A stretch of DNA of 64,000 nt from Bacillota bacterium (GCA_012840225.1 DULU01000066.1:45226-109225), one strand, 5' to 3'; positions 6,354 to 59,382 are shown, counted from the first letter of the stretch. Numbers and translations are program-made. Notes: a model not told the origin generated them from the letters alone.

Positions 6354-6513
6354 GACGAACTCCGCTTGAAAATAGTATGGAATAGTTTTTCCCTATGTTA
6401 GCTGAAAAGCTCCTCTATCCCTGCCAAACGGCGGCTAATTCAGCTAATCCTGATCGCCTCATGATAGCCGGGCTATGTAAAAGTTGTTGACAAAGGTAGC
6501 GGAGCCGATTAAC

Positions 6514-10844: not shown

Positions 10845-10880
10845 AACTCGGGGAGAAGGGTTTGGAAAGGCTGGTTGACA

Positions 10881-11912: not shown

Positions 11913-11970
11913 CGGGCGGAGTGCGACGGCAATTTTACGACCAGGTCTTGTGAATAAGGAGGCGCAAGGT

Positions 11971-12984: not shown

Positions 12985-13004
12985 AGACGGGAGGTTATGT
13001 GGTG

Positions 13005-14993: not shown

Positions 14994-15036
14994 TTCGGTC
15001 GGGTGGCCGGGTGGCTGAGGAGACGAGGAGTCGGTT

Positions 15037-16515: not shown

Positions 16516-17541
16516 ATGACCAAGTTGGGAGCGGCGGTGATCGGCGCCGGAAATATGGGGAAGATGCATGCCCGGATTTATAAGGAATTATATCAGGCCG
16601 AGCTGATTGCGGTAGCGGACATTAATGAGGAGCGGGCGAGGGAACTGGCCACGGCTATGGGTGGGGTGGATTATTATAAAGATTATACTGAGATGCTCAA
16701 AGACGAGCGCATCGAAGTGATCAGCGTGACCACGCCCGACCACCTGCATGAAGAGCCGGTGACCGCCTGCCTGGAGGCAGGTCGCCACGTGCTGGTGGAG
16801 AAGCCGCTTGCTACCAGCCTGGAGGCCTGCGATCGCATGCTGGCGGCGGAGAAGAAGGCGGGCAAAATCTTGATGGTCAACTTCAACCACCGCTGGGCTC
16901 CGCCATATGCGGCGACTAAAAACCAGCTGAGGCAGGGAAAGCAGGGGCGGCCGGTGATGGCCTATGCCCGCAAAAACGATACCATATGGGTGCCGACCGG
17001 CATGTGCCCCTGGCTGCAGCACTCTTCTTCCGCCGATTTCCTCTCCAGCCACGACATCGATCTGGTGCGCTGGTTCTTTGAGCTGGAGGTGAAGAGCGTC
17101 TATGCCTGTGGGGTGAAAAGGGTGCTCAAAGGCATGGGCTATGATACCTATGACGCCATACAGGCTTTGGTGCGCTTCGACGGCGATGCCATCGCCACCT
17201 TTGAATCGGCCTGGATATATCCGGACACCTACCCGACTCTGACCGATTCCTTTATAGAACTGGTGATGGAGCGGGGCGTGATCCACATCGACCGCCAGCG
17301 GGAGATGGTCGATGCCGTGGACAATGAAAAGCATTATTATCCCAAGAGCAACCTGAGCTGCGAGATCGAGGGGCGCCTGCAGGGGGCTTTTAAGTATTGC
17401 ATCGAGCATTTCCTGCACTGTGCGGAGACGGGCGCCATGCCTATGACCTCCGCCGCCGATGCCCGCAAGACAGCCGAGGTGGTGGCGGCCATCCACCGTT
17501 CCCTGGAGACGGGCCAGGTGGTGGAGCTGCCGCTTCGCTAG
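16516..17541 (+). CDS. Gfo/Idh/MocA-family oxidoreductase
   Basis: LGAAVIGAGNMG…LVEKPLA. GGAGG RBS 10 nt upstream. Confidence 0.85.
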   Translation: MTKLGAAVIGAGNMGKMHARIYKELYQAELIAVADINEERARELATAMGGVDYYKDYTEMLKDERIEVISVTTPDHLHEEPVTACLEAGRHVLVEKPLATSLEACDRMLAAEKKAGKILMVNFNHRWAPPYAATKNQLRQGKQGRPVMAYARKNDTIWVPTGMCPWLQHSSSADFLSSHDIDLVRWFFELEVKSVYACGVKRVLKGMGYDTYDAIQALVRFDGDAIATFESAWIYPDTYPTLTDSFIELVMERGVIHIDRQREMVDAVDNEKHYYPKSNLSCEIEGRLQGAFKYCIEHFLHCAETGAMPMTSAADARKTAEVVAAIHRSLETGQVVELPLR

Positions 17542-38690: not shown

Positions 38691-39662
38691 ATGGAAATCG
38701 ACTGCTACAGTGCGAACGCCGAAGATTGCTGGGTAAGTCATCCGGAGGAATGGCAGCCGCTTTTTGTCAGGTGGGCGGCGGAACATCCCGAAGAGGCCGA
38801 GCTTCACGTCTGGCCGCAGCTTGGGGGCCGGAAGGTGGTCGGTTTGACCACCGGGAACAGAAGTGCCGGCCGGCGCTTGCTGGTGGCCGTACCTCACGCC
38901 CACGAGCCGGCGGGAACGGCGGTGGCTGTGGATCTGGCGGCCCAGCTTTTCACCGGGCGCCATCTTGACGGCACGCCCACCGCGCTGCCGGTGGAGGATA
39001 TTTTATCACATCTTTTGATCTCACTTCTGCCCGACACCAACTCCCAAGGCCGGTCCCAAAGCCCGGAGCGTTGCTGGGATGGCAAGGTGGATAATGAGCA
39101 ATTCCTCAAGATAGCTTTCGGGAAAGCTGCCGACGGCAGCCGCTTTGGCCGGTATCCCGAATGGCGGGCGAGCGAGCATCAGCCAGGTTTGATAGGGATC
39201 GAATACGAACAAGTAGACGACGATTTATTCGTGGAACCAAATACCAGCCGGCGTTCCACACACTATCGCGCCGTGACCGCCCTGCACGCTAAGTTCGGTT
39301 ATACTCATCATCTCGATATGCATCAACATGAAGCCGCTCCTGCCGCCCTGCTCCCGGCGGAATACGAAGAGCTGCCGGAAGGTGACCGGAGAGAAATCAT
39401 GACCTGGGCGGAGATGATCATTTCCGCCTGGACGCAAATTGGCGCCGATCCCCGGCCGGACCCGTATATTCCCTATAAAGGCCGGGACCGGCAACTGCTC
39501 TTCAAAGCTTTCTGGAAAGATGCCTGCCCCGGGATGCGGCGATTGACCACCGAAGTGCGCAACAACAGGGATCATAAAACGGGGGAGCCGGTCACCCTGC
39601 CTGAGCAATTTGCCATGGCGGAGGCGGCTTTGATGGGCACCATCAGGCATTTGCTGGGCTAA
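38691..39662 (+). CDS. M14-like zinc hydrolase (carboxypeptidase / succinylglutamate-desuccinylase-aspartoacylase-like)
   Basis: HxxE zinc motif in VAVPHAHEPAG and a second His in HHLDMHQHE, the same pattern as the N-domain of the 6514 gene. The start lies 4 nt after the LacI stop, so the two are likely co-transcribed. Confidence 0.5.
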   Translation: MEIDCYSANAEDCWVSHPEEWQPLFVRWAAEHPEEAELHVWPQLGGRKVVGLTTGNRSAGRRLLVAVPHAHEPAGTAVAVDLAAQLFTGRHLDGTPTALPVEDILSHLLISLLPDTNSQGRSQSPERCWDGKVDNEQFLKIAFGKAADGSRFGRYPEWRASEHQPGLIGIEYEQVDDDLFVEPNTSRRSTHYRAVTALHAKFGYTHHLDMHQHEAAPAALLPAEYEELPEGDRREIMTWAEMIISAWTQIGADPRPDPYIPYKGRDRQLLFKAFWKDACPGMRRLTTEVRNNRDHKTGEPVTLPEQFAMAEAALMGTIRHLLG

Positions 39663-39881: not shown

Positions 39882-42323
39882 ATGCAATGTATGCACCACC
39901 ATGACCTGGGTGCGGCCTCTCTGGTGGGTCCGGTGCCCGTAAAGGCTGGTTCCATGGGTACCTGGACTATTATATATAAAGCTGGTCCGCTGGGTTTGGA
40001 ACAGGACGGCCGCGTGGGCGTTTCCTGGCTTTTTGCTTCCGACTGGGGCAGTCCGCAGACAGCGGAACCCACCGCTCCCAACTACCTCACCGCCCACTGC
40101 CGCGGCAGAGCGGGACTCGAAGTGCGCTTTGACCGCAAAGGCTACAGGAGACCTTGGTGGCCGCTGGTGTGGATCAGGGTGATTGACGGCTACCTCGAGC
40201 CCGGTGAGGAGATCGAAATCACCTTGGGCGACAGAACCGGCGGCTCGCCGGGGCAGAGGGCACCTGCGGTGGTCAACCCGCATGGGGCATTTAAAGTGCT
40301 GGTCGATTATGGCGGCACGGGAAGATGGGTGGAGCTCTCTCCGCATCTGCCTGTGCCGGTGGTGGCCGGGAAACTGGCCCGCCTCTCCATCCAGGTGCCG
40401 TCCCTGGTGCGCCCGGGGGAAAGATTCCAGGCTTTGCTGCGCCTGGAAGATGAGTTGGGCAATGTGGCCGGCGGCAAGGAAGTGGAGGTGGCGTGGTGGC
40501 TGGCGGCAGGCGCCGACCAGAGCCGGCTCCGCCCGCTGCCGGAGGCTGCTTGCGGAAACGGGAAGGGAAAATGGAAGGTGCTCATCCCGCCGGAAGGTCT
40601 CGTGCGCCTTGACGGTCTGGAGATCAGTGTTCCCGGCCTCTACCATTTCTGCGGCCGCTGCGCGGACGGCCTTGCCGCTGTGAGCAATCCGCTTTTGGTG
40701 ACTTCTGAGGGGGAGAGCATTCTCTGGGGCGACCTGCACAGCCAGTCCAGCGAGGCGCTGGGGCTCCGTCCGGCTGTGGAGCAGCTTGAAATCGCCCGCC
40801 ATATCTCCGGACTGGATTTCGCTTCCCTGCAGGGGAATGATTATGATATCAACAGCTCGGAATGGGCGGCCATCCGCAAGGCTGTGGCCGAGGCCAACCG
40901 GCCGGGTTGCTTCACCGCCTTCCTGGGCTATGAATGGTCGGGCAACACGCCGGGCGGCGGCGACCACAACGTGCTCTATGTGGACGACGATGGCGAACTG
41001 CTGCGCTCAGGCTTCTGGTGTACCCGGGAAGAGAAAAACCCGGGCAGCAATGACGGCGGGCACTCCGGCGAGCGCGCCAGCGAGCGCGCCGGCGGGCAAG
41101 TCGGCTGTGGGAGCTCGGGCGAGCGTGACAGCGGGCGCTCGTATTACCCCATTACTGAAGTATATAATCACCTGCCGCCGGGGCGGGCGATGCTCATACC
41201 CCATGTAGGCGGGCGTTATGCCAATTTTGCTTATCATCATCACGAGTTGGAACCGCTGATCGAAATCTGTTCCACCTGGGGTTATTTTGAATGGTTTATT
41301 TTTGAGGCCCTGGAGCGGCAGATGAAGGTCGGCTTCACCGGCGGCAGCGACGATCATAAAGGGCGTCCTGGACTATTGTCCTATGCCTCGGGGATATTCA
41401 GCGGGCCGGGGGGCCTGACGGCGGTGAGGGGGGGAGAATGCACCAGGGAGTCTCTCTGGCAGGCCCTGTCCCGGCGGCGCTGTTATGCTACCACCGGCAC
41501 CCGCCTCATCATGGATGTAGAGGTGGCGGGAGGCGAGATGGGTTCATGTGTAAAGAGTTCCTCACCGGTGACGGTGCACTGCCGGGTGGTGGGCACGGCG
41601 CCCATTGAACGCCTGGAGCTGCGCCGGGGGAAGGAACTGGTTGCGGTCTACCGGCCCGATCCTGCCGGCCCGACCACAAGCCCAGCCACCGGCTCGACCA
41701 CCGGCCCGACTGCCGGCCGGCGCTGGCTGAGGCTCTCCTTCGCCGGCATCAGGCCGAAGAAAAGATACGCCGCTTTAAAATGGCCGGTAAACTTGAAGCT
41801 TAATGGGTGTGCAGAGCCGGAGGCTTGGCTCATCGGGAAAGACATAAAAGTGAGCCGCTGCCCGGATGGGGTCGGGGGCGGGAGCACGGACGGGAGAGGC
41901 TGTATGAGCGGTAGCAGCAGCGCGGCCGGCGGGGCGAACCAGGATGGCCGCAAGAGTTATGAGCTCTTCGCCTATACCGTGGGTATCGAGCGCAGCCTGT
42001 GGATCCCCCTTCTCGGGGAGGAAGCGTCGCTGGAGTTCAGCACGCCCTTCATCAACCTGACCTGGCCGTCCGGGGAGGGGGCCGGGGCGGAGAAGGAGCC
42101 GAATGCCTGGCCTGCACCGGTTCGTTCATTTATATATGAAAACGGGATATGGGCGGAGGTGAACGCCTCGTGCTGGTCGGGGCTGCCACAGGCTGTAGCT
42201 CTTGAAGCGACCTGGAGCGACCCGGCTCCTCCGGGCGAGCATGCTTACTGGGTGAAAGCGGTGCAGGTAGACGGGCACTTGGCCGTCGCCAGTCCGGTTT
42301 ATGTGCAGATAGATCCGAGTTAG
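39882..42323 (+). CDS. DUF3604-family protein (PHP-like metal-dependent hydrolase fold), 813 aa
   Basis: WGDLHSQSS, DHNVLYVDD, PHVGGRYANFAYHHH, GGSDDHKG and CYATTGTR motifs are shared with the paralog at 43742. There is an internal low-complexity insertion (GERASERAGG…SGERDSGRS). Confidence 0.6.
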   Translation: MQCMHHHDLGAASLVGPVPVKAGSMGTWTIIYKAGPLGLEQDGRVGVSWLFASDWGSPQTAEPTAPNYLTAHCRGRAGLEVRFDRKGYRRPWWPLVWIRVIDGYLEPGEEIEITLGDRTGGSPGQRAPAVVNPHGAFKVLVDYGGTGRWVELSPHLPVPVVAGKLARLSIQVPSLVRPGERFQALLRLEDELGNVAGGKEVEVAWWLAAGADQSRLRPLPEAACGNGKGKWKVLIPPEGLVRLDGLEISVPGLYHFCGRCADGLAAVSNPLLVTSEGESILWGDLHSQSSEALGLRPAVEQLEIARHISGLDFASLQGNDYDINSSEWAAIRKAVAEANRPGCFTAFLGYEWSGNTPGGGDHNVLYVDDDGELLRSGFWCTREEKNPGSNDGGHSGERASERAGGQVGCGSSGERDSGRSYYPITEVYNHLPPGRAMLIPHVGGRYANFAYHHHELEPLIEICSTWGYFEWFIFEALERQMKVGFTGGSDDHKGRPGLLSYASGIFSGPGGLTAVRGGECTRESLWQALSRRRCYATTGTRLIMDVEVAGGEMGSCVKSSSPVTVHCRVVGTAPIERLELRRGKELVAVYRPDPAGPTTSPATGSTTGPTAGRRWLRLSFAGIRPKKRYAALKWPVNLKLNGCAEPEAWLIGKDIKVSRCPDGVGGGSTDGRGCMSGSSSAAGGANQDGRKSYELFAYTVGIERSLWIPLLGEEASLEFSTPFINLTWPSGEGAGAEKEPNAWPAPVRSFIYENGIWAEVNASCWSGLPQAVALEATWSDPAPPGEHAYWVKAVQVDGHLAVASPVYVQIDPS

Positions 42324-43606
42324 CGAAGCAGTGGCAAGCCGGTGTAGACCGGACCGGGATCGTCCAGGATGCCTCCGGAGGCTTCATAAAACTCCTGATC
42401 CAGGTGAAAAGTCCCACGTTCGGGCCACAGCCAAGATGCTCCCGCTCTTGGGTGGGAGGACGCCACGAGCGCCGGCCAATCGGGGTAACTTTCCGGTCCG
42501 TTGGCTTCCATCAGTCCGCCTTTGATGCCGGGGAAAGGAGGCAGGTGGGCGGCAAAGATCTTGTTCCAGTCCACCAGGAACGGCACGCAGGCATTATCCG
42601 CCACATAGCAGGCCATCCGGTGGCGAGCGGCGGCAGAAGCCATCTCGAAGGCCACCGTCATGGTTTTCCCTGCCGGCTTGATGGCTATGGCGCTATAGCC
42701 CTGCGCGGCTTTGTGGGCGACGGCGGCGGCATCGTGCAGGCTTTCGTCGGCGGCGATCCTCACGGGCAGATCGCTGACATCGATCTCCAGCTCTTCGCCG
42801 AAAGGTTCTTCCAGAATGACGATGCGCTCCAGAGCCCCGATGGCCCCGGCATGGTCCAGGAGGCGAACGATGCTCTCTTTATGGCGGTAGCGACCGTTGG
42901 CATCGAGGTAATATAAAACCTGACCGCTCTCGGTCAACGGTGTGGCGTAGGCTTTGGCCACCTGATGCACCTCGCTCAGGCGGGCCATATCTTTGGCCAG
43001 CATCTCTTCTTCGCTGCCCGGTTGGCCGATCTTGATCTTGAGCAGGCCGGCTCCGTTTTGCAGGAGGCTTTCCACGGTGGATAGAGGCAAATGGTAGGTG
43101 ACGAGCGGTACGGCCACCAATTGCTTCTGGCGATGACATAATGCCGGCCGCACCGCCGCCGGGATCAGGTCGGTGAAACTTTTACCGCCCCGCAGGCGGG
43201 CATAAAGCACCCAGGCGGCGTTGTCCAAGGCTACCAGGGCATTGAGCGTAAAGGTGGGGCGGAGGGCGGGTCGTCCGGTGATCAGCCGGCCATAGCCATG
43301 CACTTCGTCTTTGACGGTGGCAAGCAACTCGGGCGGGTCGGCAAATTCCCGGCCTTCCGCCAGCTTCAGCGCCTTTTCCAGGAGGCAGAGCATGATCAGG
43401 TTGCCGCCGGCCTCGCTGTGAGCGGTGAAGACGGCCTCATCGGACCAGAGGACGGCCAGGCCGCCCAAGCCGAAAGCCTCATGGCCGCCGGCTTCTTCCA
43501 GGCGCACCACCGCATTCCATTTTTCCCGGAAGAAAGAGCCTTTGAAGCCGAAGGGGCGGGCAAAGGGCTCCCGCTGGATGTCAAAAAGAGCGCGTTTTAT
43601 TTTCAC
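42320..43606 (-). CDS. Enolase-superfamily enzyme (MR/MLE type; dipeptide-epimerase/racemase-like)
   Basis: Motifs LKIKIG (KxK), LYYLDANG, ILEEPF, RIAADES and IAIKPAGK match the MR/MLE metal-ligand and catalytic-Lys pattern. GTG start with an AAAGGAGG RBS 7 nt upstream. Confidence 0.7.
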   Translation of the reverse strand: MKIKRALFDIQREPFARPFGFKGSFFREKWNAVVRLEEAGGHEAFGLGGLAVLWSDEAVFTAHSEAGGNLIMLCLLEKALKLAEGREFADPPELLATVKDEVHGYGRLITGRPALRPTFTLNALVALDNAAWVLYARLRGGKSFTDLIPAAVRPALCHRQKQLVAVPLVTYHLPLSTVESLLQNGAGLLKIKIGQPGSEEEMLAKDMARLSEVHQVAKAYATPLTESGQVLYYLDANGRYRHKESIVRLLDHAGAIGALERIVILEEPFGEELEIDVSDLPVRIAADESLHDAAAVAHKAAQGYSAIAIKPAGKTMTVAFEMASAAARHRMACYVADNACVPFLVDWNKIFAAHLPPFPGIKGGLMEANGPESYPDWPALVASSHPRAGASWLWPERGTFHLDQEFYEASGGILDDPGPVYTGLPLLR

Positions 43607-45341: not shown

Positions 45342-46403
45342 ATGAGAAAGGTGCGGTTTGCCGTTGTCGGGTTGGGTACCATCGGCCGGGTGCATATCAG
45401 CGCCGTGCAAAAAGCCCCTGCGGCGGAGTTGGTCGCCGTAGTCGATGCTGATGCCGCCCGGGCCGAGAGCATGGGGAAAGAGTTGGGTGTACCTTGGTAT
45501 ACGGCGGTGGAAGAGTTGGTGGCCAGGGAAAAAATCGATGTGGTCAACATTTGCACGCCGAGTGGCCTGCACCTGGAGCCGGCGCTGGCGGCCGTAAAGG
45601 GCGGCTGCCATGTCCTGGTGGAGAAACCGCTGGAGGTGACCGTCGAGCGCTGCGACCAAATCATTAGGGCCTGTCGCCGGGCGGGAGTGAAGCTCGGGGC
45701 CATCTTTCAGAACCGCCTATTCGACGCCAACCGGATGGTCTGGGAGGCGGTGCGGCAGCAGCGCTTCGGGCGTCTGATCCTGGGCGTGGTCAATCTGAAA
45801 TGGTGGCGCTCGCAGGATTATTACGATGCGGGTGCCTGGCGGGGGACCTGGGCCATCGACGGCGGCGGAGCGGTGATGAATCAGGGCATACACCGCATCG
45901 ACCTCTTGCAATGGCTGTTCGGCGAGGTGGAGTCGGTTTATGCTCACGCCGCCTGCCTGGCTCATGAAAGGATCGAGGTGGAAGACACCGCCGTTGCCGT
46001 CTTGCGTTTCAAAAGCGGGGCGGTGGGCTCGGTCATCGCTTCCACGGCCGCCTACCCCGGCTTTCCGGCCAGGCTGGAAGTGCACGGTGATCAGGGTGGG
46101 ACCGTCGTGGAGGACAACAAAATAATCGCCTGGCACGGCCAGGATATCTCCCCGGAGGAAGAGGCGCAGGTGCTGGGCCAATTTGCCGGGGAGAAGCGGG
46201 CCGGCGCCATGGCCGATCCGGCCATGCTTTCCCATATCGGTCATGAACGGCAGATCGCCGATATGGCCCTGGCGGTGCTGGAAGACAGGGAACCTATGGT
46301 AACCGGTCTGGAAGCGAGGAAATCGGTAGCCATCATCGAAGCTATATATGCTTCCGCCCGGAGCGGGCAGCCGGTGGCGGTGTCCATACCGGAGTTGATG
46401 TGA
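45342..46403 (+). CDS. Gfo/Idh/MocA-family oxidoreductase
   Basis: MRKVRFAVVGLGTIG…LVEKPLE. Confidence 0.85.
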   Translation: MRKVRFAVVGLGTIGRVHISAVQKAPAAELVAVVDADAARAESMGKELGVPWYTAVEELVAREKIDVVNICTPSGLHLEPALAAVKGGCHVLVEKPLEVTVERCDQIIRACRRAGVKLGAIFQNRLFDANRMVWEAVRQQRFGRLILGVVNLKWWRSQDYYDAGAWRGTWAIDGGGAVMNQGIHRIDLLQWLFGEVESVYAHAACLAHERIEVEDTAVAVLRFKSGAVGSVIASTAAYPGFPARLEVHGDQGGTVVEDNKIIAWHGQDISPEEEAQVLGQFAGEKRAGAMADPAMLSHIGHERQIADMALAVLEDREPMVTGLEARKSVAIIEAIYASARSGQPVAVSIPELM

Positions 46404-47768: not shown

Positions 47769-47797
47769 CGGTGCCGGGCGGCGAAGCCGGCTGGAGG

Positions 47798-47846
47798 CTC
47801 CGGAGCTGGAGCTTGAATTCTCCAGGCTCCGGGGCCGCTTTTTTCT
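47798..47846 (+). terminator. Rho-independent terminator after the aminotransferase gene
   Basis: CCGGAGCTGGAG…CTCCAGGCTCCGG is an imperfect ~12-bp stem, followed by GGCCGC and then TTTTTT. Confidence 0.5.
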
Positions 47847-47972: not shown

Positions 47973-48917
47973 ATGGTGGGGACCGGTGGCTGCGATGTTT
48001 TGGGATTGGGCTGCGTGGCTGTGGACGATCTGTTTTTTGTGGACCGCTACCCGGCGCCTGATGAAAAAGTGATGGTCAGGGAGAGATACCGGCAATGCGG
48101 CGGTTTGACGGCCACCGCTTTGGTGACTGCCGCCAGGTTGGGCGCTTCCTGCGCCTATGCCGGCATGCTGGGGGAAAATGAATTATCTGCCTTTGTCCGC
48201 AACACGTTGGAAAAAGAGGGCATCGATACCAGTCGAGTGGTGCCGGTGAAAGAGGCGGCTCCCATCCATGCCATTGTCATCGTGGATATTAAGGCGCGGA
48301 CCCGCACCATTATCAACTGCCCGCCTCCCGTCACCGGGGCGCACCCGGAGTTGCCGCCAGCCGAGGTGATAGAGCACACCAAAGTGCTGCTGGTGGACCA
48401 TTGGGGCGCCGCCGGCATGTTGAGGGCGGCCGGGGTGGCCAAAGCTGCCGGTATTCCCGTGGTAGCCGATTTCGAATTGACGGGCATCGATTGGGTGGCC
48501 CCGGTAATGCCGCTGGTGGATCATCTCATTGTGCCGGAATCCTTTGCGCTGCGGTATACCGGCGAGAGCGACGCCCGAGCTGCGGCGATGGCGCTGGTGC
48601 AGCCAGGGAGGAAGACGGTGATCGTCACCCAAGGGGCGAGAGGCGGCGTTTATGTGGATGCCGCAGCGTCTCGTCCCGTGGTGCAGACCTATGGCATCTA
48701 CCCGGTTGAGGTCGTGGATACCACCGGTTGCGGCGACGTTTTCCATGGGGCTTATTGCATGGCGCTGGTGAAAGGCTGGCCGCTCGAGGAGCGGGTGCGT
48801 TTCGCTTCAGCCGTCGCCGCCCTGAAGGCTACCAAACCGGGAGGCCAAGCCGGCATCCCGCGGGTCGACGAAGTGTTTCACTTTATGAAGACCAACCGAC
48901 CGGTTGATTACAGATAA
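47973..48917 (+). CDS. PfkB-family (ribokinase-like) carbohydrate kinase
   Basis: VLGLGCVAVDDLFFV, the GG dipeptide (RYRQCGGLTATA) and the C-terminal DTTGCGDVFHGAY catalytic motif. GGAAGGGAA RBS. Confidence 0.85.
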   Translation: MVGTGGCDVLGLGCVAVDDLFFVDRYPAPDEKVMVRERYRQCGGLTATALVTAARLGASCAYAGMLGENELSAFVRNTLEKEGIDTSRVVPVKEAAPIHAIVIVDIKARTRTIINCPPPVTGAHPELPPAEVIEHTKVLLVDHWGAAGMLRAAGVAKAAGIPVVADFELTGIDWVAPVMPLVDHLIVPESFALRYTGESDARAAAMALVQPGRKTVIVTQGARGGVYVDAAASRPVVQTYGIYPVEVVDTTGCGDVFHGAYCMALVKGWPLEERVRFASAVAALKATKPGGQAGIPRVDEVFHFMKTNRPVDYR

Positions 48918-48938
48918 ACAGATTAATTAAAAGTATAT

Positions 48939-50243
48939 ATGGAGGCGCAGCCGCAGATGAACAAGGAGCAAAAAGACCTCGTCCCACCGCAGCCGGAGCT
49001 GGGGGGAGGAAATGAGCAGGACTATATCTTTGCCGAGTATTATGTCAGCAGCCCTTCGGGGAGAGATGTCATGGACTTGGCCCGGCGCTTTGCCGTGGGG
49101 CAGACCGTAGGTACCTGGATGGAGCTCCCCGGCTTGACGGCGGAGATCAGAGCCCGGCATCAGGGACAGGTGGTGGATGTGCTGGAGCTGCCACCACGGC
49201 GAGATGCCGGCGGCGGGGTGAGCGAATATCTCCTGCAAGTGGCCTATCCCTGGCGCAATTTCGACGACAGCATCAGCATGCTTTTTACCACCCTCATCGG
49301 CAACGATACCTCTACTGCCTTACCTGTTAAGCTCGTCGATTTGACCTTCCCCGAGGCCTATGCCAGGCAGTTTCCCGGGCCGCGGTACGGACTGGCCGGC
49401 TGGCGGCAGCTCGCCGGGGTGAGTGAGAGGCCGCTGGTGCTGAACATGATCAAACCATGTGTCGGTCTGAGCCCGGCCGAAGGCGCGGCTATCTTCTATG
49501 AGACGGCCCTGGGCGGGGTGGACTTCATCAAGGACGACGAATTGCTCGGCGACACCTCTTTCTCGCCGCTTGAGGAGAGAACGAAAGCCTATGTGGCCGC
49601 CGCCCGCCGGGCTGAAGAGGAAACGGGGAAAAGGGTACATTATGTGGCCAACGTGACCGGGCGGCCGGAGCGCCTCAAGGAGCGCGCCCGTCGGGCGGTG
49701 GCGGCCGGGGCCGGCGCCGTGATGGTCAACTGGCTCTTTACCGGTCCCGATGCCTTGGTGGATCTGGTGGCGGATGGGGAGATCAATGTGCCTGTGCTGG
49801 CCCATTGCGCCGGCACCGGACTTTACCTGGATTCGCTGGCCGGAGGGGTGGCCTCACGGGTGCTCTTCGGCCGTCTGGCCAGGCTGGCCGGCGCCGATGC
49901 CGTCATTTTCTGCACACCCATGAGCGGCGGCGGCATCACCAAGAGCGAGTTCCTGAAGACCGCCCATTATCTGCGATCACCGCACAGCTGCCACCGGCCC
50001 AGCCTGCCGGTGGTGGGAGGTGGAGCGACACCCGGGCAGTTGCCGGTGATTGCCGGTGATATCGGCCTCGACGTGATGATCGCCGCCGGCGGCGCGGTGC
50101 AGGGCCATCCCATGGGTGCCAAGGCCGGAGCCAAAGCTATGATGGCGGCGGCGGAAGCCGTGGCTCGCGGCCTCTCATTGGCCGAGGTGCAGAAGGAGTC
50201 TCCGGAGCTCGCCGCCGCTTTGCAATTGTGGGGCGGGCTATGA
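48939..50243 (+). CDS. RuBisCO large-subunit-like protein (form IV RLP)
   Basis: NMIKPCVGLS is the K175 equivalent at residue 172. GGVDFIKDDE supplies the K201/D203/E204 equivalents at residues 198-201. The C-terminal glycine loop VVGGGATPG is present. Alternative start ATG 48957, which lies 11 nt after GGAGG. Confidence 0.85.
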   Translation: MEAQPQMNKEQKDLVPPQPELGGGNEQDYIFAEYYVSSPSGRDVMDLARRFAVGQTVGTWMELPGLTAEIRARHQGQVVDVLELPPRRDAGGGVSEYLLQVAYPWRNFDDSISMLFTTLIGNDTSTALPVKLVDLTFPEAYARQFPGPRYGLAGWRQLAGVSERPLVLNMIKPCVGLSPAEGAAIFYETALGGVDFIKDDELLGDTSFSPLEERTKAYVAAARRAEEETGKRVHYVANVTGRPERLKERARRAVAAGAGAVMVNWLFTGPDALVDLVADGEINVPVLAHCAGTGLYLDSLAGGVASRVLFGRLARLAGADAVIFCTPMSGGGITKSEFLKTAHYLRSPHSCHRPSLPVVGGGATPGQLPVIAGDIGLDVMIAAGGAVQGHPMGAKAGAKAMMAAAEAVARGLSLAEVQKESPELAAALQLWGGL

Positions 50244-50288: not shown

Positions 50289-51848
50289 ATGGAACTTGCA
50301 GTAACACCTGAAGCTTTGCGGTTGTGGCCATTCCAGGAAGCGGAGAGATTGATCAAGCGCTGGCCGCAAAAAGAAAAATTCATCCTGGAGACGGGCTTCG
50401 GGGCTTCCGGTCACCCGCATATGGGCACCATCGGGGAGATTGTGCGCACCCATTATGTGGTCATGGCTTTGCGACAGTTGGGCAAAGATGCCGAGATCAT
50501 TGTCTTTTCCGACGACATGGACGGCCTGCGCAAGGTGCCGCAGAATATCGCCGCGCCGTGGCTGAAGGATTACCTGGGGGTGCCGGTGACCAGCATTCCC
50601 GATCCCTACGGCACGGCGGCTTCCTTCGGGGAGCATATGAACGCCGAGTTGCGGGAGATGATGGCGCAGACCGAGATCGACGCCACCTTCAAATCGGCGA
50701 CCGCCTGCTATAGCGACGGCACCTTTGCCGACGGCATCCGGCAGATGTTCGCCCATATGGAGGAGATCAAAGCTTTAGCCTTGCCCACCATGCGCGAGGA
50801 GAACCGGGTCGGCTGGTTTCCCTGGCTGCCGCGCTGCGAGCGCTGCGGGAAGCTTTATACCACCATTGTGGAGCATTACGACCCGGAACGGCTGACGGTG
50901 GATTATAAATGCACCGGGAGCTTCCGCGATGTGACCGGTTGCGGCTACCAGGGCAGTCAGAGCGTTCTCGGCGGCACCGGCAAATTTTACTGGAAGGCGG
51001 ATTGGGCACTGCGCTGGCATGTGCTGGGCATCAATTACGAGATGCACGGCAAGGATCTGCTGGATTCGGCCAAGCTCTCGGCGGCCATGGTCAGATGTCT
51101 CGGTGGGAAGCCGCCTCTGACCATGGTGTATGAGCTCTTTCTGACCGAGGAAGGGCGGAAGATCAGCAAGTCCACCGGTGCGGGCATTTCCATGGAAAAC
51201 TGGGACCGCTGGGGGACCCAGGATTCGCTGAACCTGCTCATGTTCAAAAACCCCAAGCAGCAGAAAAAGCTGAGCACGGCGAGCATCATCCAATACACCG
51301 ACGAAACTCTGACCATGGAGCCGAGCGATCCGCAGTATCAGTTTATATATTATCACGGCGACCGGCCCGATCTCGGCGGCCTGCGCTATTCGGACATCAT
51401 CAATCTGGTGAACGCCACCAGCATCACCGATGCCGATCAGCTGGTGGAGTATCTCGGCCGCAGCTTCGGGATGGAGCGCATCAAGGCCAACGAGAAGTTT
51501 GTGCGGGAACTTTTGACCAAGGCAGTGAATTATTATAATGATTTCATCCTGCCGACCCGCCGCGTCCCCGAGCTATCGGCCGAGGACTGGGCTTTGATCG
51601 CCAGGTTTGAGCAGCTGATCGATGAGACCGACGATGCCGACGCCATCCAGTCCGGGGTGTATGAAATCGCCCGCAGCGCCGGCCGGGAACCGAAGGAATT
51701 CTTCAAGGTGATATACGGGGTGTTGCTGGGGGCCGAGAGCGGTCCCAGGGTGGGCGGCTTCGTCAAGCTGGTGGGAAAGGAAAAAGTGCACGAGCTGATC
51801 GCCGCCGCCCGTGAGCAGGCCGGTGTGGCCGCCCGGCAGGAGCAATAG
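50289..51848 (+). CDS. lysK: Class-I (archaeal-type) lysyl-tRNA synthetase
   Basis: HIGH-like motif SGHPHMGT, KMSKS motif KISKSTG and an overall match to class-I LysRS (…FSDDMDGLRKVPQNI…). AAGGAGA RBS lies upstream of ATG 50289. The track ORF starts at 50250. Confidence 0.75.
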   Translation: MELAVTPEALRLWPFQEAERLIKRWPQKEKFILETGFGASGHPHMGTIGEIVRTHYVVMALRQLGKDAEIIVFSDDMDGLRKVPQNIAAPWLKDYLGVPVTSIPDPYGTAASFGEHMNAELREMMAQTEIDATFKSATACYSDGTFADGIRQMFAHMEEIKALALPTMREENRVGWFPWLPRCERCGKLYTTIVEHYDPERLTVDYKCTGSFRDVTGCGYQGSQSVLGGTGKFYWKADWALRWHVLGINYEMHGKDLLDSAKLSAAMVRCLGGKPPLTMVYELFLTEEGRKISKSTGAGISMENWDRWGTQDSLNLLMFKNPKQQKKLSTASIIQYTDETLTMEPSDPQYQFIYYHGDRPDLGGLRYSDIINLVNATSITDADQLVEYLGRSFGMERIKANEKFVRELLTKAVNYYNDFILPTRRVPELSAEDWALIARFEQLIDETDDADAIQSGVYEIARSAGREPKEFFKVIYGVLLGAESGPRVGGFVKLVGKEKVHELIAAAREQAGVAARQEQ

Positions 51849-51883
51849 CAGGCGCAATAAATGAATAGAGTAAATAAAGAAAA

Positions 51884-51920
51884 GACGCTGCCGGGGGAGA
51901 ACCGGGCAGCGTCTTTTTTT
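51884..51920. terminator. Bidirectional rho-independent terminator between the lysK and pntB convergent genes
   Basis: GACGCTGCCGGG-ggagaa-CCGGGCAGCGTC is a perfect 12-bp stem. TTTTTTT follows on the plus strand and a T-rich tract follows on the minus strand. Confidence 0.7.
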
Positions 51921-51955
51921 AACATCTTCGCATCCAACAGATCGGCCCAAGGCCA

Positions 51956-54975: not shown

Positions 54976-56286
54976 TCAACGGCCCCCGGAGAGCGCCGGC
55001 AACAGCTCTACCTTGTTATTCCTCATGGCGGAGTCGGCGCGGAAACCGATCAGGTGACCGGCGATCGAATCTTCCAAAGAGGTGCAGGAGATGGACGGCT
55101 CCTCGCCTCTCAGCACCCGGCAGAAATCATCGACCAGTCGCAGATCGCCGCCGGCATGTCCTCCGGCAGCACCGAACATGTCACCTTTGATATTAACATC
55201 GATTTCCGTTTCTGTATATTCTTTTCCGGGCCTGGTGTCAATATGTCTGATGACGAAGGAGCTTTTATGCAGCAAGCCTTCGATCTCCCCATTGGTGCCC
55301 AAAAGGTGAATGGAGCGCGAGGGCCGGGCGGTGCCGCCCACCATGTTGAGGGTGCCGGTGCTGCCGTCGGCGAATTCCACCGTCACCGATTGATGGTCGA
55401 CCACGTCATTGTCGCATTTCCAGACGCAGCGGCCATAGGGACTATCTTTCAGGAAAGCGGCTTTTTCCTCCAGGGTGGCCTCTTCGTTATTCTCCAGGCC
55501 GTCCCATACATAGAAACGCCACCGTTTGGGATGGTCGAGGTAATGTTTGCGGGCGGAATACAGACACTCGCTTTCGATGGGACAGTCGACCAGACAGCGC
55601 TCGCCGGCGCCGGCCGGGGCTTTTTCCGGCCGGAAATAGGTAAGCTGGCCGAAACTGCTCACCTTCACCGGGGCGATGCCGCTCTTCATCCAGGCCATAA
55701 GATCAAGATCGTGGCAGCATTTGGCCATCAGCATGGGTGAGCCGCAGCGCTCCCGGTTGGCCCACTTGCCCCTGATAAAAGCCACAGCCATGTGATGATA
55801 GCTCACATGCTCGGTCAGCTGGATATTTAAAATCTCGCCGATTTCCCCGGCCGCCACCAGGGATTTGATGCGGGCATAAAACGGGGCATAGCGCAGCACA
55901 TGGCAGATCATCACGATGCGCCGGTGTTTTCTCGCCACTTCCACCAACTGCCACATTTCCTCTTCATTGACGGCAAACGGTTTCTCCAGCAAGATGTGAT
56001 ATCCGGCGGCGAGCAGTGGCAGGCTGGTAGGCACATGCTGCCGATCCATGGTACCGTTGATGACGGCATCGGCAAAGCGCGGCTGCTCGGCCAACTCTTC
56101 AGCCGTTTTAAAGCGCAGATGATGTGGGATGCGGAAATAATCTCCCATCTGTTCCCGGCGCTGATCGTTGGGCTCGGCGATGCCGACTATTTCCAGCGCT
56201 TCCGGATTCTTCAGGGCGTAGGAGGCATATACGAAGGATCTGTGTCCGGCTCCGACTATTACTGCTTTCACTGGTTTTTTACTCAT
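54976..56286 (-). CDS. Gfo/Idh/MocA-family oxidoreductase with a Cys-rich insertion
   Basis: VKAVIVGAGHRS…LLEKPFA. An internal segment reads CLVDCPIESEC…GRCVWKCDND. AAGGAG RBS 8 nt upstream. Confidence 0.8.
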   Translation of the reverse strand: MSKKPVKAVIVGAGHRSFVYASYALKNPEALEIVGIAEPNDQRREQMGDYFRIPHHLRFKTAEELAEQPRFADAVINGTMDRQHVPTSLPLLAAGYHILLEKPFAVNEEEMWQLVEVARKHRRIVMICHVLRYAPFYARIKSLVAAGEIGEILNIQLTEHVSYHHMAVAFIRGKWANRERCGSPMLMAKCCHDLDLMAWMKSGIAPVKVSSFGQLTYFRPEKAPAGAGERCLVDCPIESECLYSARKHYLDHPKRWRFYVWDGLENNEEATLEEKAAFLKDSPYGRCVWKCDNDVVDHQSVTVEFADGSTGTLNMVGGTARPSRSIHLLGTNGEIEGLLHKSSFVIRHIDTRPGKEYTETEIDVNIKGDMFGAAGGHAGGDLRLVDDFCRVLRGEEPSISCTSLEDSIAGHLIGFRADSAMRNNKVELLPALSGGR

Positions 56287-56477
56287 CAGGGTGGCTCCTT
56301 TTCACAATTGTCTATGGGTAATTCGCACCGGCCGGGGGAAAACCTGCTCTCTGTGCCACACTCTGTGTCACTCTTTGCTCCGCTCTCTGTCTCTCCCTTT
56401 GCCCGGGTGGAGGCGCAGGATTCTCCCCGCCCGGCTAAAATTATAATGATAGATTTATATTGGAAAGGAAGATATTT

Positions 56478-57488
56478 ATGGAAAAAGTGCGTTGGGGAAT
56501 TCTCGGCACGGCCAGCATCGCCCGCCGGCATGCCATACCGGCGATCAAGCTCGTGCCCTTTGCCGAAGTGGCGGCCATTGCCAGCCGGGACGGCAGCAAA
56601 GCGGCGGCCATGGCTCAGGAATTCGGTATTCCTCGTGCTTTTGCCGGCTACGACGAGCTCTTGGCCAAGGCGGATATCGATGCCGTTTACATACCGCTGC
56701 CAAACGACATGCACCTGACCTGGATAGAAAAGGCGGCAGCGGCAGGCAAGCATGTCCTCTGCGAGAAGCCGCTCGGTCTCAATGCCGAGGAAGTGCGCCG
56801 GGTGATGGAGATAGCCCGGAAAACCGGCCGCTATATCGTGGAAGGGGTCACTTCCTATTTTAACCCCCTGCATCGCCGGGTGGCGGAATTGATCGCCGAG
56901 GGACGGATAGGCGAAGTGCGCTCCATTCATATCAACCTGGGGTGGAGCTTCAGGGACAAGCCCGGCGACTTTCGCTGGCGCAAGGAGCAGGGCGGCGGGG
57001 CTTTGCTGGATATCGGCGGTTATTGCGTGAGCACAGCCAGGCGCCTCGCCGGAGCCGAACCGGGCTGGGTGAGCGCTGCGGCCCTTTTCCATCCCGAACA
57101 TGGGGTGGATACCGACATGGCCATGTTGCTGGCCTTTGTCAACGGGGTCAGGGCGGTCATCGATTTCAGCCTGTTTTCGGCCTATCGCAATGAATATAGC
57201 GTGGTGGGCACCACCGGGCGCATCAAGGTGGAGAATCCCTTCGGCAACGGCGCCGGTACCCGCCGCATCCTGCTCACGGATATCGGTGGGGCGCCGGCAC
57301 TGGAGGAGGAAGTGACTGCTTACCAGATGAAAGAGCAGTTCGCCACGGTGAGCAGATGCTTCCTCCAGGGTGAGGCGCCGTCACCCACCCTGGAAGAAAG
57401 CCTGGCCAATGCTATGGTGCTCGATGCCTGCCTGCAGTCGGCGGCAGCTGACGGCGCTAAAGTGACCCTGACCGGAAAGATGGCGTGA
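56478..57488 (+). CDS. Gfo/Idh/MocA-family oxidoreductase
   Basis: VRWGILGTASIARR…LCEKPLG. ATG 56478; the track starts at TTG 56460. Confidence 0.85.
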   Translation: MEKVRWGILGTASIARRHAIPAIKLVPFAEVAAIASRDGSKAAAMAQEFGIPRAFAGYDELLAKADIDAVYIPLPNDMHLTWIEKAAAAGKHVLCEKPLGLNAEEVRRVMEIARKTGRYIVEGVTSYFNPLHRRVAELIAEGRIGEVRSIHINLGWSFRDKPGDFRWRKEQGGGALLDIGGYCVSTARRLAGAEPGWVSAAALFHPEHGVDTDMAMLLAFVNGVRAVIDFSLFSAYRNEYSVVGTTGRIKVENPFGNGAGTRRILLTDIGGAPALEEEVTAYQMKEQFATVSRCFLQGEAPSPTLEESLANAMVLDACLQSAAADGAKVTLTGKMA

Positions 57489-57523: not shown

Positions 57524-58813
57524 CTAAAGCAGGTTTGACGGAATCAGTTCCAGGTTCCAGAGATCAGGGGTGATCTCGGCGTTGTTGCCGGAGATGGTGA
57601 TGTTCCTCCCGGCGAGAAGGCCGGTGACCTTCACATTGGACCCTGATATAGTAATATCTCTTTTGCTGATGATGGCGGCGCGCACATCGGCGTTGGCTTC
57701 CTGGATGAAGACATTGTTCTCCGCCCAGATGACCAGGCCGTGAGGGGCGCCGCTGCCGCGCCTGGTGATCTTCACATCTCCCTTGACGACGATCACCCCG
57801 CCGCCCTGCAGATAGCCGTCGAGCGTCAGATCGCCGTCCACCGTGATGATACCGTCGAGCGGGGCGCCGGTCTGCAGGGTGAGGTTGCCGCGGAACGACC
57901 TGTTCGCCCATCTCTGCCAGTCGTTCCATTTGATGTCCGGAAGGGACAGCCTGGAGGGCACCCGGCTGGTGTAGTTGCGATTGTTTCCGAACTGGGAGAT
58001 GCTGTCGTAGGCATAGATGCCGCCCGAGATCACGATGTTGTTGCCCAGGACGTCACAGTCGTCGTTGGACCTGATCCGGCCGTATATTTTAAGGTTGTTG
58101 CCGCGCAGCGTTATATCCCCTGTGGAGAAGATGGCATATCCCAAAGCCGGCCATTTGCGCACGGCCCAGGGTTCACTTGGCTCGACGGGAGTGGGAAAGG
58201 GAGTGGGAATCGGCTGGTCGTATTGCGGAGGCGTAGGCACAGGCACCGGGGCGGGTGCCGGTATCGGTTGCGGGGTGGGCACCGGGACCGGGGTAGGTTT
58301 TGGGGTTGGGGAGGTGGCCGGCGGCGTGTGGACGGACACCGAGGGCGTTTCTATGGTGACGTCTATGATGGCCGACACTCCTACCTGCTCCACCCGCCGC
58401 AGGCCCTGGAAAGGATTCTTGCTGTCCAGCGGCACCAAAGCCTTGGCTCTGAGGCCGCCGAAGATATCGGCCTCGATCTGGCCGACGGCCTGGACCTTGT
58501 TGACCAGATGAGCCGGGCCGGTGACCTGGGCGGCGCCTACATAGGCCCCCGTACCCACGCTGATTATCGGCACCACCTTGGTGACGGCCAGCTTCTCCAG
58601 CCCCCTGTTGAAAGTGATGGTGTTGATGAAATCATTGATCTCTTCGTTGCATAAATCGACCACATAGGCGATACCGAAAAGCTTCAGGGCGGAAAAGATG
58701 TCCAGGGCGGCATGTGTGACGGGCACCAGACTGGAGACCATGATCAGGACCGTCACCAGCAAAATGATTCTGTTGGCTGCTCTTTTGTTTAAACTTTTTT
58801 TCACCGTCATCAT
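57524..58813 (-). CDS. Hypothetical membrane-anchored or secreted protein: N-terminal TM, Pro/Thr-rich linker, C-terminal beta-helix-like repeat domain
   Basis: N-terminal anchor RIILLVTVLIMVSSLV. Linker TPKPTPVPVPTPQPIPAPAPVPVPTP. C-terminal repeats (GNNLKIYGRIRSNDDCDVLGNNIVISGGIYAY…DITISGSNVKVTGLLAGRNITISGNNAEI) resemble bactofilin/DUF4097-type beta-helix rungs. The track ORF extends upstream to 59011. Confidence 0.45.
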   Translation of the reverse strand: MMTVKKSLNKRAANRIILLVTVLIMVSSLVPVTHAALDIFSALKLFGIAYVVDLCNEEINDFINTITFNRGLEKLAVTKVVPIISVGTGAYVGAAQVTGPAHLVNKVQAVGQIEADIFGGLRAKALVPLDSKNPFQGLRRVEQVGVSAIIDVTIETPSVSVHTPPATSPTPKPTPVPVPTPQPIPAPAPVPVPTPPQYDQPIPTPFPTPVEPSEPWAVRKWPALGYAIFSTGDITLRGNNLKIYGRIRSNDDCDVLGNNIVISGGIYAYDSISQFGNNRNYTSRVPSRLSLPDIKWNDWQRWANRSFRGNLTLQTGAPLDGIITVDGDLTLDGYLQGGGVIVVKGDVKITRRGSGAPHGLVIWAENNVFIQEANADVRAAIISKRDITISGSNVKVTGLLAGRNITISGNNAEITPDLWNLELIPSNLL

Positions 58814-58824
58814 AAACCTCCAGT

Positions 58825-59382
58825 CTATTGACCGGCACGGCACAAGCCGGCGAGCCATCTGCCCGTGATCTCCAGCACGACCTTTTTGTGGTCCAGATTC
58901 TGGCGGCGGGCAGGTATCAAATCCACCACATCGAAACCGCAGGTGACCAGGATTTTTTCCAGGCTGACCACCGCGCTCGGGGCGCCGCCTCCTCCGCCTC
59001 CGGCCACGCATATCCCCACCGCCTTTTTCCCGGCAAAATTGGCACCGCTGGGACGGGAGACGCGCCGCAGGCGGTCGAGAAAGGCGCGCATGCTTTCGGA
59101 CAGATCACCGAAATAGACCGGGGTGGCGAAGACCACGGCCTCAGCCGCACGGATAGCCGCCGCTATGCCGGCCAGGTCGTCGTGGATGATGCACATCCCC
59201 TCCTGCCGGCAGGTGCCCCAGCCGCTGGCGGTGCATTGCCGACATCGCTGGATATCCTTCTCCGGGAGGAAGAGGCGCTCGACCGCCCCTCCTTCCGCCT
59301 CCACACCTGAAAGGAGAGCGTTCACCGCTTGGGCAGTCTGCCCTTCCGGGTTACGACTGCCGAGAATCGCCAGGACTTTCAT
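58825..59382 (-). CDS. NADPH-dependent FMN reductase / iron-sulfur flavoprotein-like (flavodoxin fold)
   Basis: MKVLAILGSRNPEGQT… flavodoxin-like N-terminus plus Cys cluster RCRQCTASGWGTCRQEGMC. AAGGAG RBS. Upstream of, and co-directional with, the beta-helix protein gene. Confidence 0.6.
   Translation of the reverse strand: MKVLAILGSRNPEGQTAQAVNALLSGVEAEGGAVERLFLPEKDIQRCRQCTASGWGTCRQEGMCIIHDDLAGIAAAIRAAEAVVFATPVYFGDLSESMRAFLDRLRRVSRPSGANFAGKKAVGICVAGGGGGGAPSAVVSLEKILVTCGFDVVDLIPARRQNLDHKKVVLEITGRWLAGLCRAGQ

Follow-up and report, generated by a model that had tools for sequence, protein, structure and literature searches.

A form-IV RuBisCO-like protein encoded behind a YihV-like PfkB kinase in a Bacillota genome: a candidate two-step sugar-phosphate module

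The genes considered here lie in a 64,000-nucleotide stretch of DNA from a Bacillota bacterium (GCA_012840225.1, DULU01000066.1:45226-109225; the whole stretch is called the window, and positions are counted from its first letter), in which a PfkB/ribokinase-family sugar kinase is followed by a form-IV RuBisCO-like protein (RLP). An earlier interpretation made without database searches (the sequence-only reading) had placed the kinase gene at 47973-48917 and the RLP open reading frame (ORF) at 48939-50243 (434 amino acids), separated by 21 nucleotides, and these assignments were confirmed by ORF calls. The kinase, which is YihV-like, is encoded on the plus strand, as is the RLP; it has 314 amino acids and scores 139.6 bits on the Pfam PfkB model. 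Within the RLP ORF, the ATG at 48957 is the likelier start, being preceded by GGAGG nine nucleotides upstream and matching the JGI gene call, which gives a 428-amino-acid product (48957..50243) and a gap of 39 nucleotides to the kinase gene; residue numbers of RLP motifs nevertheless refer to the 434-amino-acid ORF throughout. The next gene on the plus strand, at 50289..51848, encodes a class-I lysyl-tRNA synthetase (LysRS; Pfam tRNA-synt_1f 336 bits, TIGR00467 206.3 bits against a cut-off of 147.55), the most likely start of which, at 50289, follows an AAGGAG ribosome-binding site and leaves 45 nucleotides after the RLP gene.

The PfkB, RLP and LysRS genes are predicted to form one transcription unit that is separate from the upstream GFO, aminotransferase, DUF3604 and enolase-like genes, because they are bracketed by terminators, are spaced by only 39 and 45 nucleotides, each have a ribosome-binding site of their own (that before the PfkB ATG reads GGAAGGGA) and contain no internal terminator. 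The upstream boundary is an intrinsic-terminator-like hairpin with a U-run at 47794..47846 on the plus strand, 26 nucleotides past the aminotransferase stop codon; in the RNA fold it has a 16-bp G+C-rich stem with a free energy of -34.4 kcal/mol (z = -2.4) and UUUUUU at 47839-47844. The downstream boundary is a bidirectional terminator at 51880..51921, between the LysRS gene and the convergent pntB, which reads AAAA-GACGCTGCCGGG-GGAGAA-CCGGGCAGCGTC-TTTTTTTT and overlaps a weak Rfam match (51876-51913) to the 3′ end of a terminator-bearing small RNA. A terminator scan inside the unit returned only low-scoring hairpins within coding regions, at the frequency expected by chance. No T-box or other riboswitch was found in Rfam ahead of the operon or of LysRS at E <= 1, and a shared palindromic operator was looked for upstream of PfkB and not found. 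Recent horizontal acquisition of the pair was rejected, since the GC content and third-position GC content of PfkB and RLP match those of their neighbours.

In Pfam scans the RLP matched RuBisCO_large (PF00016) with 149.5 bits over residues 159-431 (cut-off 30.1) and RuBisCO_large_N (PF02788) with 36.4 bits over residues 27-141 (cut-off 20.7), and its residues 42-432 align end to end with the solved MtnW structure 2oek (E = 8e-76), much better than chance would give. The active-site register was taken from a MAFFT alignment of 85 RLP and RuBisCO sequences, which confirmed the positions given previously for K172 (MIKPCVG) and for K198, D200 and E201 (GGVDFIKDDE); together with H289, these are the equivalents of RuBisCO K175, K201, D203, E204 and H294. 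The equivalent of N123 is Asn122, and those of G381, G403 and G404 are also kept. The intact KDDE site had been presented as a distinguishing feature, a point that does not hold because the site is kept in 85/85 of the RLP and RuBisCO sequences compared. At other RuBisCO positions the RLP carries replacements, namely K177 to Cys, R295 to Cys, H327 to Ile (LAGADAVIF in the window lies opposite LSGGDHIHS in this region of the alignment) and S379 to Gly, and the GKxEG loop-6 motif of RuBisCO is absent. The sequence is thus that of a form-IV RLP in which the core Lys, Lys-carbamate, Asp, Glu and His residues are intact and catalysis is plausible, as the sequence-only reading had held.

The closest characterised relative is MtnW/YkrW of Bacillus and Geobacillus (2oek, 2zvi), which belongs to a sister clade and is approximately 36-41% identical. 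Among solved structures, the RLP scores 244-258 bits with the YkrW group (258 with 2oek), 177-197 bits with the Photo RLPs 1ykw and 2qyg, and 122-135 bits with 3nwr and 3qfw. MtnW and the RLP share the two-domain fold, the K175/KCX201/D203/E204/H294 core and the single-phosphate site G381/G403/G404, whereas the RLP differs in having Asn for Lys98, as true RuBisCO does, a different loop 6, a PfkB kinase and not MtnK, and no mtn genes. An MtnW identity was rejected on the basis of 344.5 bits on PRK09549/NF007095 (cut-off 409) and 288.7 bits on TIGR03332 (cut-off 513.6), models on which genuine Bacillus-type MtnW proteins score 580-688 bits. The RLP has Asn122 where all seven MtnW reference sequences carry Lys (Lys98 in Geobacillus numbering), a residue that Imker and colleagues reportedly identified in 2007 as the general base, and it differs at further MtnW markers (I173 to Met, V177 to Cys, P295 to Cys and S379 to Gly). 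The ORFs that flank mtnW in two reference loci (L029 and L034), which are expected to include mtnK/A/X/B/D/E and were compared without individual annotation, match nothing in the window at E <= 1e-4, in agreement with the earlier statement that methionine-salvage genes are missing. The DUF1537 kinase that had likewise been reported as missing was not found in Pfam scans of approximately 45 window ORFs. An OiaX identity was also rejected, as the RLP reaches 189 bits on NF042437 against a cut-off of 700, compared with 765 and 737 bits for the genuine OiaX proteins of L087 and L088.

We then placed the RLP in a neighbour-joining tree with MtnW, OiaX-type and form III references (200 bootstraps; no DeepYkr reference was in the tree). 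The RLP nests within form IV, the OiaX sequences lie on a distant branch, and the nearest group is a large RLP clade sister to YkrW/MtnW, which we refer to as clade A in this analysis (relatives of the window RLP at loci L001, L004-L027 and L031). The RLP and clade A were monophyletic in 199/200 bootstraps, and the RLP and MtnW in 0/200; clade A alone was monophyletic in 89/200, so that the RLP may branch beside the clade, as its sister, and not inside it. Both have the signature N123, M173, K175, C177, K201, D203, E204, H294, G379, G381, G403 and G404, and the RLP is 43-51% identical to clade-A members, the clade mean being 57%. The view that no known RLP system fits this protein therefore stands in so far as it is neither a YkrW/MtnW nor an OiaX, but it overlooked a peripheral membership of clade A, which has its own typical gene context.

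Among 97 near-invariant clade-A columns the RLP keeps 89 and loses eight, and six of the eight losses (five in 328-332, plus Y338) fall within loop 6, which forms the lid of the active site, or directly beside it. The loop-6 motif NTPYGGYP...Y, which is invariant in clade A as is E298, reads CTPMSGGGITKSEF in the window RLP; the losses outside loop 6 are E298D and the position two residues after N123. All of these changes are conserved in an 85%-identical homologue (L093), and the dN/dS between the pair is 0.08, which together argue that the RLP is, as judged from these sequences, a functional variant under selection and no decaying copy. The rewritten loop 6 suggests a substrate unlike that of the parent clade. 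When 5.8 billion protein clusters were searched, the RLP itself and a single fragment with 85% identity came back, followed by a drop to 52% or less, so this sub-lineage is rare, with two sequences among approximately 5.8 billion clusters; the other matches listed were 46-52% identical, mostly unnamed or generically named, and their named sources were mostly Clostridia, Paenibacillus, Actinomycetes and Chloroflexi. No close relative was found in a scan of 185k species genomes either, where the best match had 49% identity. The L093 gene lies on a 988-bp contig that begins inside the RLP gene; it too is followed by LysRS, although the 78% nucleotide identity makes the shared order little informative.

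Clade-A proteins come from Clostridia, Lachnospiraceae, Oscillospiraceae, Paenibacillus, Actinomycetes and Chloroflexi. The only name NCBI gives to members is 'RuBisCO large subunit C-terminal-like domain-containing protein'. The label 'DK-MTP-1-P enolase', used by JGI for several homologues, is attached to many of them, and 'transcriptional regulator' to a few. No published function of the clade was found in the literature consulted, which did not include the clade tables of Tabita 2007, Erb 2012 and Carter 2018. Its gene context is distinctive: TIM-like and RpiB-like genes both occur within 10 kb in 16/24 clade-A loci, compared with 0/61 other RLP/RuBisCO loci, and the same 24 loci contain genes for a UPF0261 kinase (12), a class-II aldolase-family protein (12), Lactamase_B (11) and an FGGY kinase (6). 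An unbiased Pfam count over the four genes on either side of clade-A RLPs gave the same list of partners. UPF0261 is a kinase family (2025 paper on MarK). In half of the loci, the class-II aldolase-family gene also matches 3-oxo-tetronate-4-phosphate decarboxylase (92 bits, cut-off 250), and in a Pullulanibacillus protein (P0084, 697 amino acids) TIM and RLP are naturally fused.

Two actinomycete clade-A loci (L008 and L016) resemble erythritol loci, with genes for a GlpD-like dehydrogenase, DeoR, TIM, RLP, RpiB and an FGGY kinase, to which L008 adds an ABC transporter. In Brucella erythritol catabolism, EryC, a xylose-isomerase-like TIM barrel, is the L-3-tetrulose-4-phosphate racemase, and its substrate is a 1-phospho-2-keto-3-hydroxy compound, a motif common to all known RLP substrates. 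The RLP of L008 and L016 fills the slot where the EryC epimerase would sit, between the GlpD-like dehydrogenase and the TIM-like and RpiB-like isomerases, although the folds are unrelated, and no EryC-type PF01261 gene is present in the gene list of L008, the only ery-like locus with a Pfam listing. By this analogy, clade A apparently acts on a four-carbon ketose phosphate, perhaps as an epimerase; for the window RLP, the same argument would be one step further removed.

The window differs from these contexts. TIM-like and RpiB-like genes gave no tblastn match in its 64 kb at 1e-3, none of the UPF0261, FGGY, class-II aldolase and Lactamase_B partners lies near the RLP, and a PfkB partner was never seen in clade A, in which a kinase is a usual neighbour. 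Genes for a 2-hydroxyacid dehydrogenase and an FGGY kinase do adjoin each other at 13992-16509, a site 32 kb upstream of the RLP gene. Members of both families are also found on either side of the clade-A RLPs of L009 and L018, and the window proteins are 34% and 24-29% identical to their L009 counterparts. In gut Clostridia (L004, L005, L011 and L012 from Diplocloster, L022, L025 and L031), the clade-A RLP occurs in a block with Amidohydro_2, PEP_hydrolase-like, UPF0261 and Lactamase_B genes; just upstream, Diplocloster also has a pair of arylsulfotransferase genes and one for a Na/sulfate-type symporter.

The PfkB kinase reaches no NCBIfam equivalog cut-off, its best match being ribokinase with 124 bits against approximately 300, followed by secondary matches to 5-dehydro-2-deoxygluconokinase (98.5 bits) and KDG kinases and by weak matches to ribose-1-phosphate kinase models (73-75 bits against cut-offs of 330-500). 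Its best solved homologue is E. coli YihV, the 6-deoxy-6-sulfofructose 1-kinase (7ag6, 139.7 bits), while other chains reach at most 96 bits and ribokinases at most 87. The two have in common the ribokinase fold, the GXGD Asp and the equivalents of the sugar-binding Asp13 and Lys27; the catalytic GCGD (D255) of the window kinase is invariant in 120/120 relatives, and D18 is conserved as well. YihV recognises the sulfonate through a K27-N109-R138 triad (PMC8006165), of which the window kinase keeps the first two residues (K32 and N115) but has Trp144 for Arg138, and in all but a handful of the 120 relatives this position is Phe, Tyr or Trp. The sulfofructose kinase identity that JGI assigns to some relatives was therefore rejected, and, because the sulfonate-binding Arg is replaced across the family, these kinases probably take an uncharged sugar. 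Homologues of yihS, yihT and yihU are also missing from the unit. Verrucomicrobia, Armatimonadetes, Planctomycetes and similar phyla are the sources of relatives with 45-57% identity. Across the kinase family, the commonest direct neighbours are an RPE-type ketose-phosphate 3-epimerase (14/58 loci) and a 450-amino-acid protein (20/45 loci), neither of which is present in the window. Pfam enrichment around 17 long loci with PfkB relatives showed no single dominant context.

Relatives of this kinase adjoin a different RuBisCO-superfamily protein elsewhere, and this is what supports a coupling between kinase and RLP. We fetched 80 metagenomic loci with PfkB relatives, of which approximately 32 extend for 5.5 kb or more on the upstream side, and in five of these approximately 32 the operon of the kinase contains a very divergent RuBisCO-superfamily gene, which we term RLP-X (L105:2401-3870, L130:2397-3824 and L133:6500-7927; also L112 and L127). 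The RLP-X proteins, from soil and freshwater metagenomes, have 475-489 amino acids, are 27-30% identical to the window RLP, reach 34-46 bits in Pfam and find their best PDB match in 3nwr (64 bits); they retain K175, K201-x-D-E and H294 but not N123 or the T65/W66 motif. Four of the loci have the order RLP-X, GFO, AP_endonuc_2, alpha/beta hydrolase, RPE, PfkB, 450-amino-acid protein, with ThuA before RLP-X in L105, and one has RLP-X, PfkB, GH32. The kinases linked to RLP-X are scattered over the PfkB tree. A RuBisCO-superfamily gene stands beside one kinase family in three different arrangements, which is well above chance adjacency, and the RLP-X loci provide independent support, the best there is, for kinase and RLP acting together. 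The logic proposed at the outset, in which a kinase prepares the substrate of an RLP, accordingly remains the most economical reading and gains from the RLP-X loci, but the exact pairing was found in no other genome. It is conceivable, although rather unlikely at present, that the YihV-like PfkB family has recruited RuBisCO-superfamily enolising enzymes at least twice, once as the clade-A offshoot and once as RLP-X, and so defines an undescribed ketose-1-phosphate route with a RuBisCO-like protein replacing an RPE-type epimerase or a sugar-phosphate isomerase. If true, the few RLP functions known so far would be joined by a new reaction, with a new family of partner kinase.

Our favoured interpretation, which we hold tentatively and place a little short of an even chance, is that PfkB and RLP constitute a two-step sugar-phosphate module with a substrate unlike that of the parent clade, LysRS being a passenger. 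In such a module, the YihV-like kinase would phosphorylate a neutral ketose or keto-sugar, probably at C1 by analogy with YihV, to give a 1-phospho-2-keto-3-hydroxy compound. The RLP, in which the corresponding residues are present, would hold the single phosphate at G381/G403/G404 and bind Mg2+ through carbamylated K198, D200 and E201, and might then deprotonate the carbon adjoining the carbonyl, the counterpart of the RuBisCO step at C3 of ribulose-1,5-bisphosphate (RuBP), to form a cis-enediolate. With no second-phosphate or CO2-addition residues in the RLP, the enediolate would be reprotonated rather than carboxylated, for a net epimerisation or isomerisation, and the product would pass into central metabolism. 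A misprotonation side reaction of RuBisCO itself resembles this step.

Parts of this scheme are found in known systems. As with MtnW, an upstream kinase would provide a 1-phospho-keto substrate. The mechanistic model is the DeepYkr RLP of Rhodospirillum rubrum and R. palustris, a 5-methylthio-D-ribulose-1-phosphate 1,3-isomerase; there, a ketose-1-phosphate is enolised and then reprotonated to give an isomer, and no C-C bond is made or broken (PMC5893883). The cupin methylsulfurylase and the mtnP/mtnA context of that setting are missing around the window RLP. The same order of kinase and then RLP within a sugar-utilisation locus is seen with OiaX/OiaC of D-apiose catabolism, the 3-oxo-isoapionate-4-phosphate decarboxylase/transcarboxylase, but there the kinase is a DUF1537 protein and not a PfkB, and residues 123, 177 and 295 differ.

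Several observations weigh against a PfkB-RLP module. The exact pairing of this RLP lineage with PfkB is seen only in this genome; a PfkB homologue lies within 10 kb in 0/89 RLP/RuBisCO loci, even at E <= 1e-2; the two named PfkB contexts contain no RLP; PfkB neighbourhoods are heterogeneous, and the family is probably not isofunctional. The adjacency and co-transcription of LysRS show that the operon tolerates functionally unrelated neighbours. The C1 regiochemistry would be an extrapolation from one solved homologue at approximately 140 bits, the epimerase or isomerase role suggested for clade A itself derives from gene context, and TIM-like and RpiB-like partners could lie outside the 64-kb window. 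This last point leads to an alternative that we consider unlikely but worth retaining, namely that the RLP performs the clade-A job, a four-carbon ketose-phosphate step with TIM-like and RpiB-like partners encoded elsewhere, PfkB being either this lineage's pathway kinase or an unrelated neighbour. In its favour are the 199/200 bootstraps, the full catalytic signature (N-M-K-C...K-D-E...H...G-G-G-G) and the 89 of 97 conserved columns; the clade already uses non-homologous kinases (FGGY and UPF0261), of which PfkB could be a third, and the 64 kb of the window belong to a longer contig, of 76 kb or more, with one of 231 kb recorded as well. Set against this are the lack of TIM-like and RpiB-like genes over 64 kb when the clade norm is within 10 kb (16/24), and the loop-6 losses and E298D, kept in L093, which argue for altered specificity.

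Quite unlikely, in our view, is a route in which PfkB phosphorylates a keto-acid, as KDG kinase and IolC do, and the RLP decarboxylates or trans-carboxylates a 3-oxo-acid phosphate in the manner of OiaX/OiaC. The secondary matches of PfkB to 5-dehydro-2-deoxygluconokinase and KDG kinases point that way, as do the decarboxylase-like aldolase genes of half the clade-A loci, and RLP decarboxylases are already known (review); yet the RLP, with its 189 bits on the OiaX model, is far from L087 and L088 in the tree, has Cys and Asn where OiaX-type proteins keep R295 and Gly at 123, and shares its transcription unit with no DUF1537 kinase, acid-sugar dehydrogenase or lactonase. It is very improbable that the protein is a YkrW/MtnW-type 2,3-diketo-5-methylthiopentyl-1-phosphate enolase with its partner genes elsewhere: MtnW does supply the best NCBIfam and PDB matches (344.5 bits on PRK09549, 258 bits with 2oek), but the scores fall below both curated cut-offs, Lys98 is Asn and the other markers differ, no bootstrap replicate joins the RLP to MtnW, and the window has no homologue of the mtnW-flanking genes. 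Even less speaks for a genuine carboxylase of a nucleoside/AMP-to-RuBP pathway, such as archaeal form III systems have, with PfkB acting in the manner of a ribose-1-phosphate kinase. The weak ribose-1-phosphate kinase matches and the retention of N123, K175, K201, D203, E204 and H294 would fit, but this identity was rejected because other residues stand at the equivalents of K177, R295, H327 and S379 and the GK(L/F)EG motif is missing from loop 6; among the form III sequences compared, R295 and S379 are universal and K177 is nearly so. No R15P isomerase or AMP phosphorylase is encoded nearby, and the RLP nests inside form IV. Returning to the module of PfkB and RLP, the RLP probably marks an undescribed two-step sugar-phosphate conversion. 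What endures of the undescribed RLP route first proposed is an RLP of no assigned function next to a kinase that plausibly serves it, a pairing known from one rare lineage, with lysK and the wider neighbourhood excluded.

LysRS is a housekeeping passenger that is probably co-transcribed with PfkB and RLP and has no part in the pathway. Its orthologues, 70-76% identical, are found in unrelated contexts in metagenome-assembled genomes (MAGs) of Symbiobacteriaceae and Bacillota, which would place the uncultured source organism near Symbiobacteriaceae. Three relatives were checked: two of them carry Spo0A or an rRNA operon ahead of LysRS and neither gene of the pair over the 8 kb upstream; the contig of the third has only approximately 430 bp on that side. 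A co-occurrence of PfkB, RLP and lysK in other genomes, for which the sequence-only reading had suggested a check, was not found, and LysRS was rejected as a functional partner since its orthologues in the related genomes checked lack the pair. The window organism and its Symbiobacteriaceae-like relatives (L094-L096) have class-I (archaeal-type) LysRS; in L095 the gene directly adjoins the rRNA operon, and one MAG names it lysS2, a hint of two LysRS genes in some relatives.

The genes upstream of the hairpin had been offered as context for the RLP, and this did not survive comparison: a strong terminator lies between them and PfkB, and homologues of the GFO, aminotransferase, DUF3604 and enolase-like genes occur in 0/89 RLP loci and 0/80 PfkB loci, so they were rejected as members of the pathway. 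In the 89 RLP/RuBisCO loci no homologue of the window PfkB, LysRS, DUF3604, enolase-like or 323-amino-acid proteins was found at E <= 1e-2. The family assignments made for these neighbours held for the GFO/IolG-like oxidoreductase, the class-III aminotransferase and two DUF3604/CehA-like proteins. They did not hold for the 'enolase-superfamily' gene (42320-43606, minus strand), which is below threshold (MR_MLE_C 26.2 bits, cut-off 29.4), or for the 'M14-like deacylase' (38691-39662), which has no Pfam or NCBIfam match. The enolase-like gene converges on that of an 813-amino-acid DUF3604/CehA-like protein (39882-42323, plus strand), and their stop codons overlap by four nucleotides.

Elsewhere in the window, there are eight GFO/IDH/MocA oxidoreductase genes (1843-3003, 10875-13949, 16516-17541, 45342-46403 and 54976-57488), five SBP_bac_1 genes (9540, 22073, 29400, 36170 and 59635), most without adjoining permease genes, and ROK and LacI regulators; this content is the profile of a heavily sugar-scavenging genome. 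A 973-amino-acid protein with only a partial Peptidase_M14 match (residues 188-291) is encoded at 6484-9405, and its gene heads a block of genes for a solute-binding protein, three GFO proteins, a dehydrogenase and a kinase. The ORFs at 38691-39662, 4321-5091, 56286-57101 and 57524-59011 (256-495 amino acids) have no Pfam match.

Approximately four RLP reactions are established, namely the MtnW enolase, the R. rubrum 1,3-isomerase, the OiaX/OiaC decarboxylase/transcarboxylase and an oxygenase of the hamamelose pathway (review), and each of them showed a capacity of the RuBisCO active site apart from CO2 fixation. The practical value of a further one would be modest here, as the lineage is rare. 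The window RLP keeps the RuBisCO-type enolisation residues, including Asn123, without the second-phosphate and CO2-addition residues. A defined reaction for this protein, or for clade A, which is common in gut Clostridia, would correct the widespread 'DK-MTP-1-P enolase' mis-annotation and would provide data on the path by which carboxylation emerged from plain enolisation or fell back to it.

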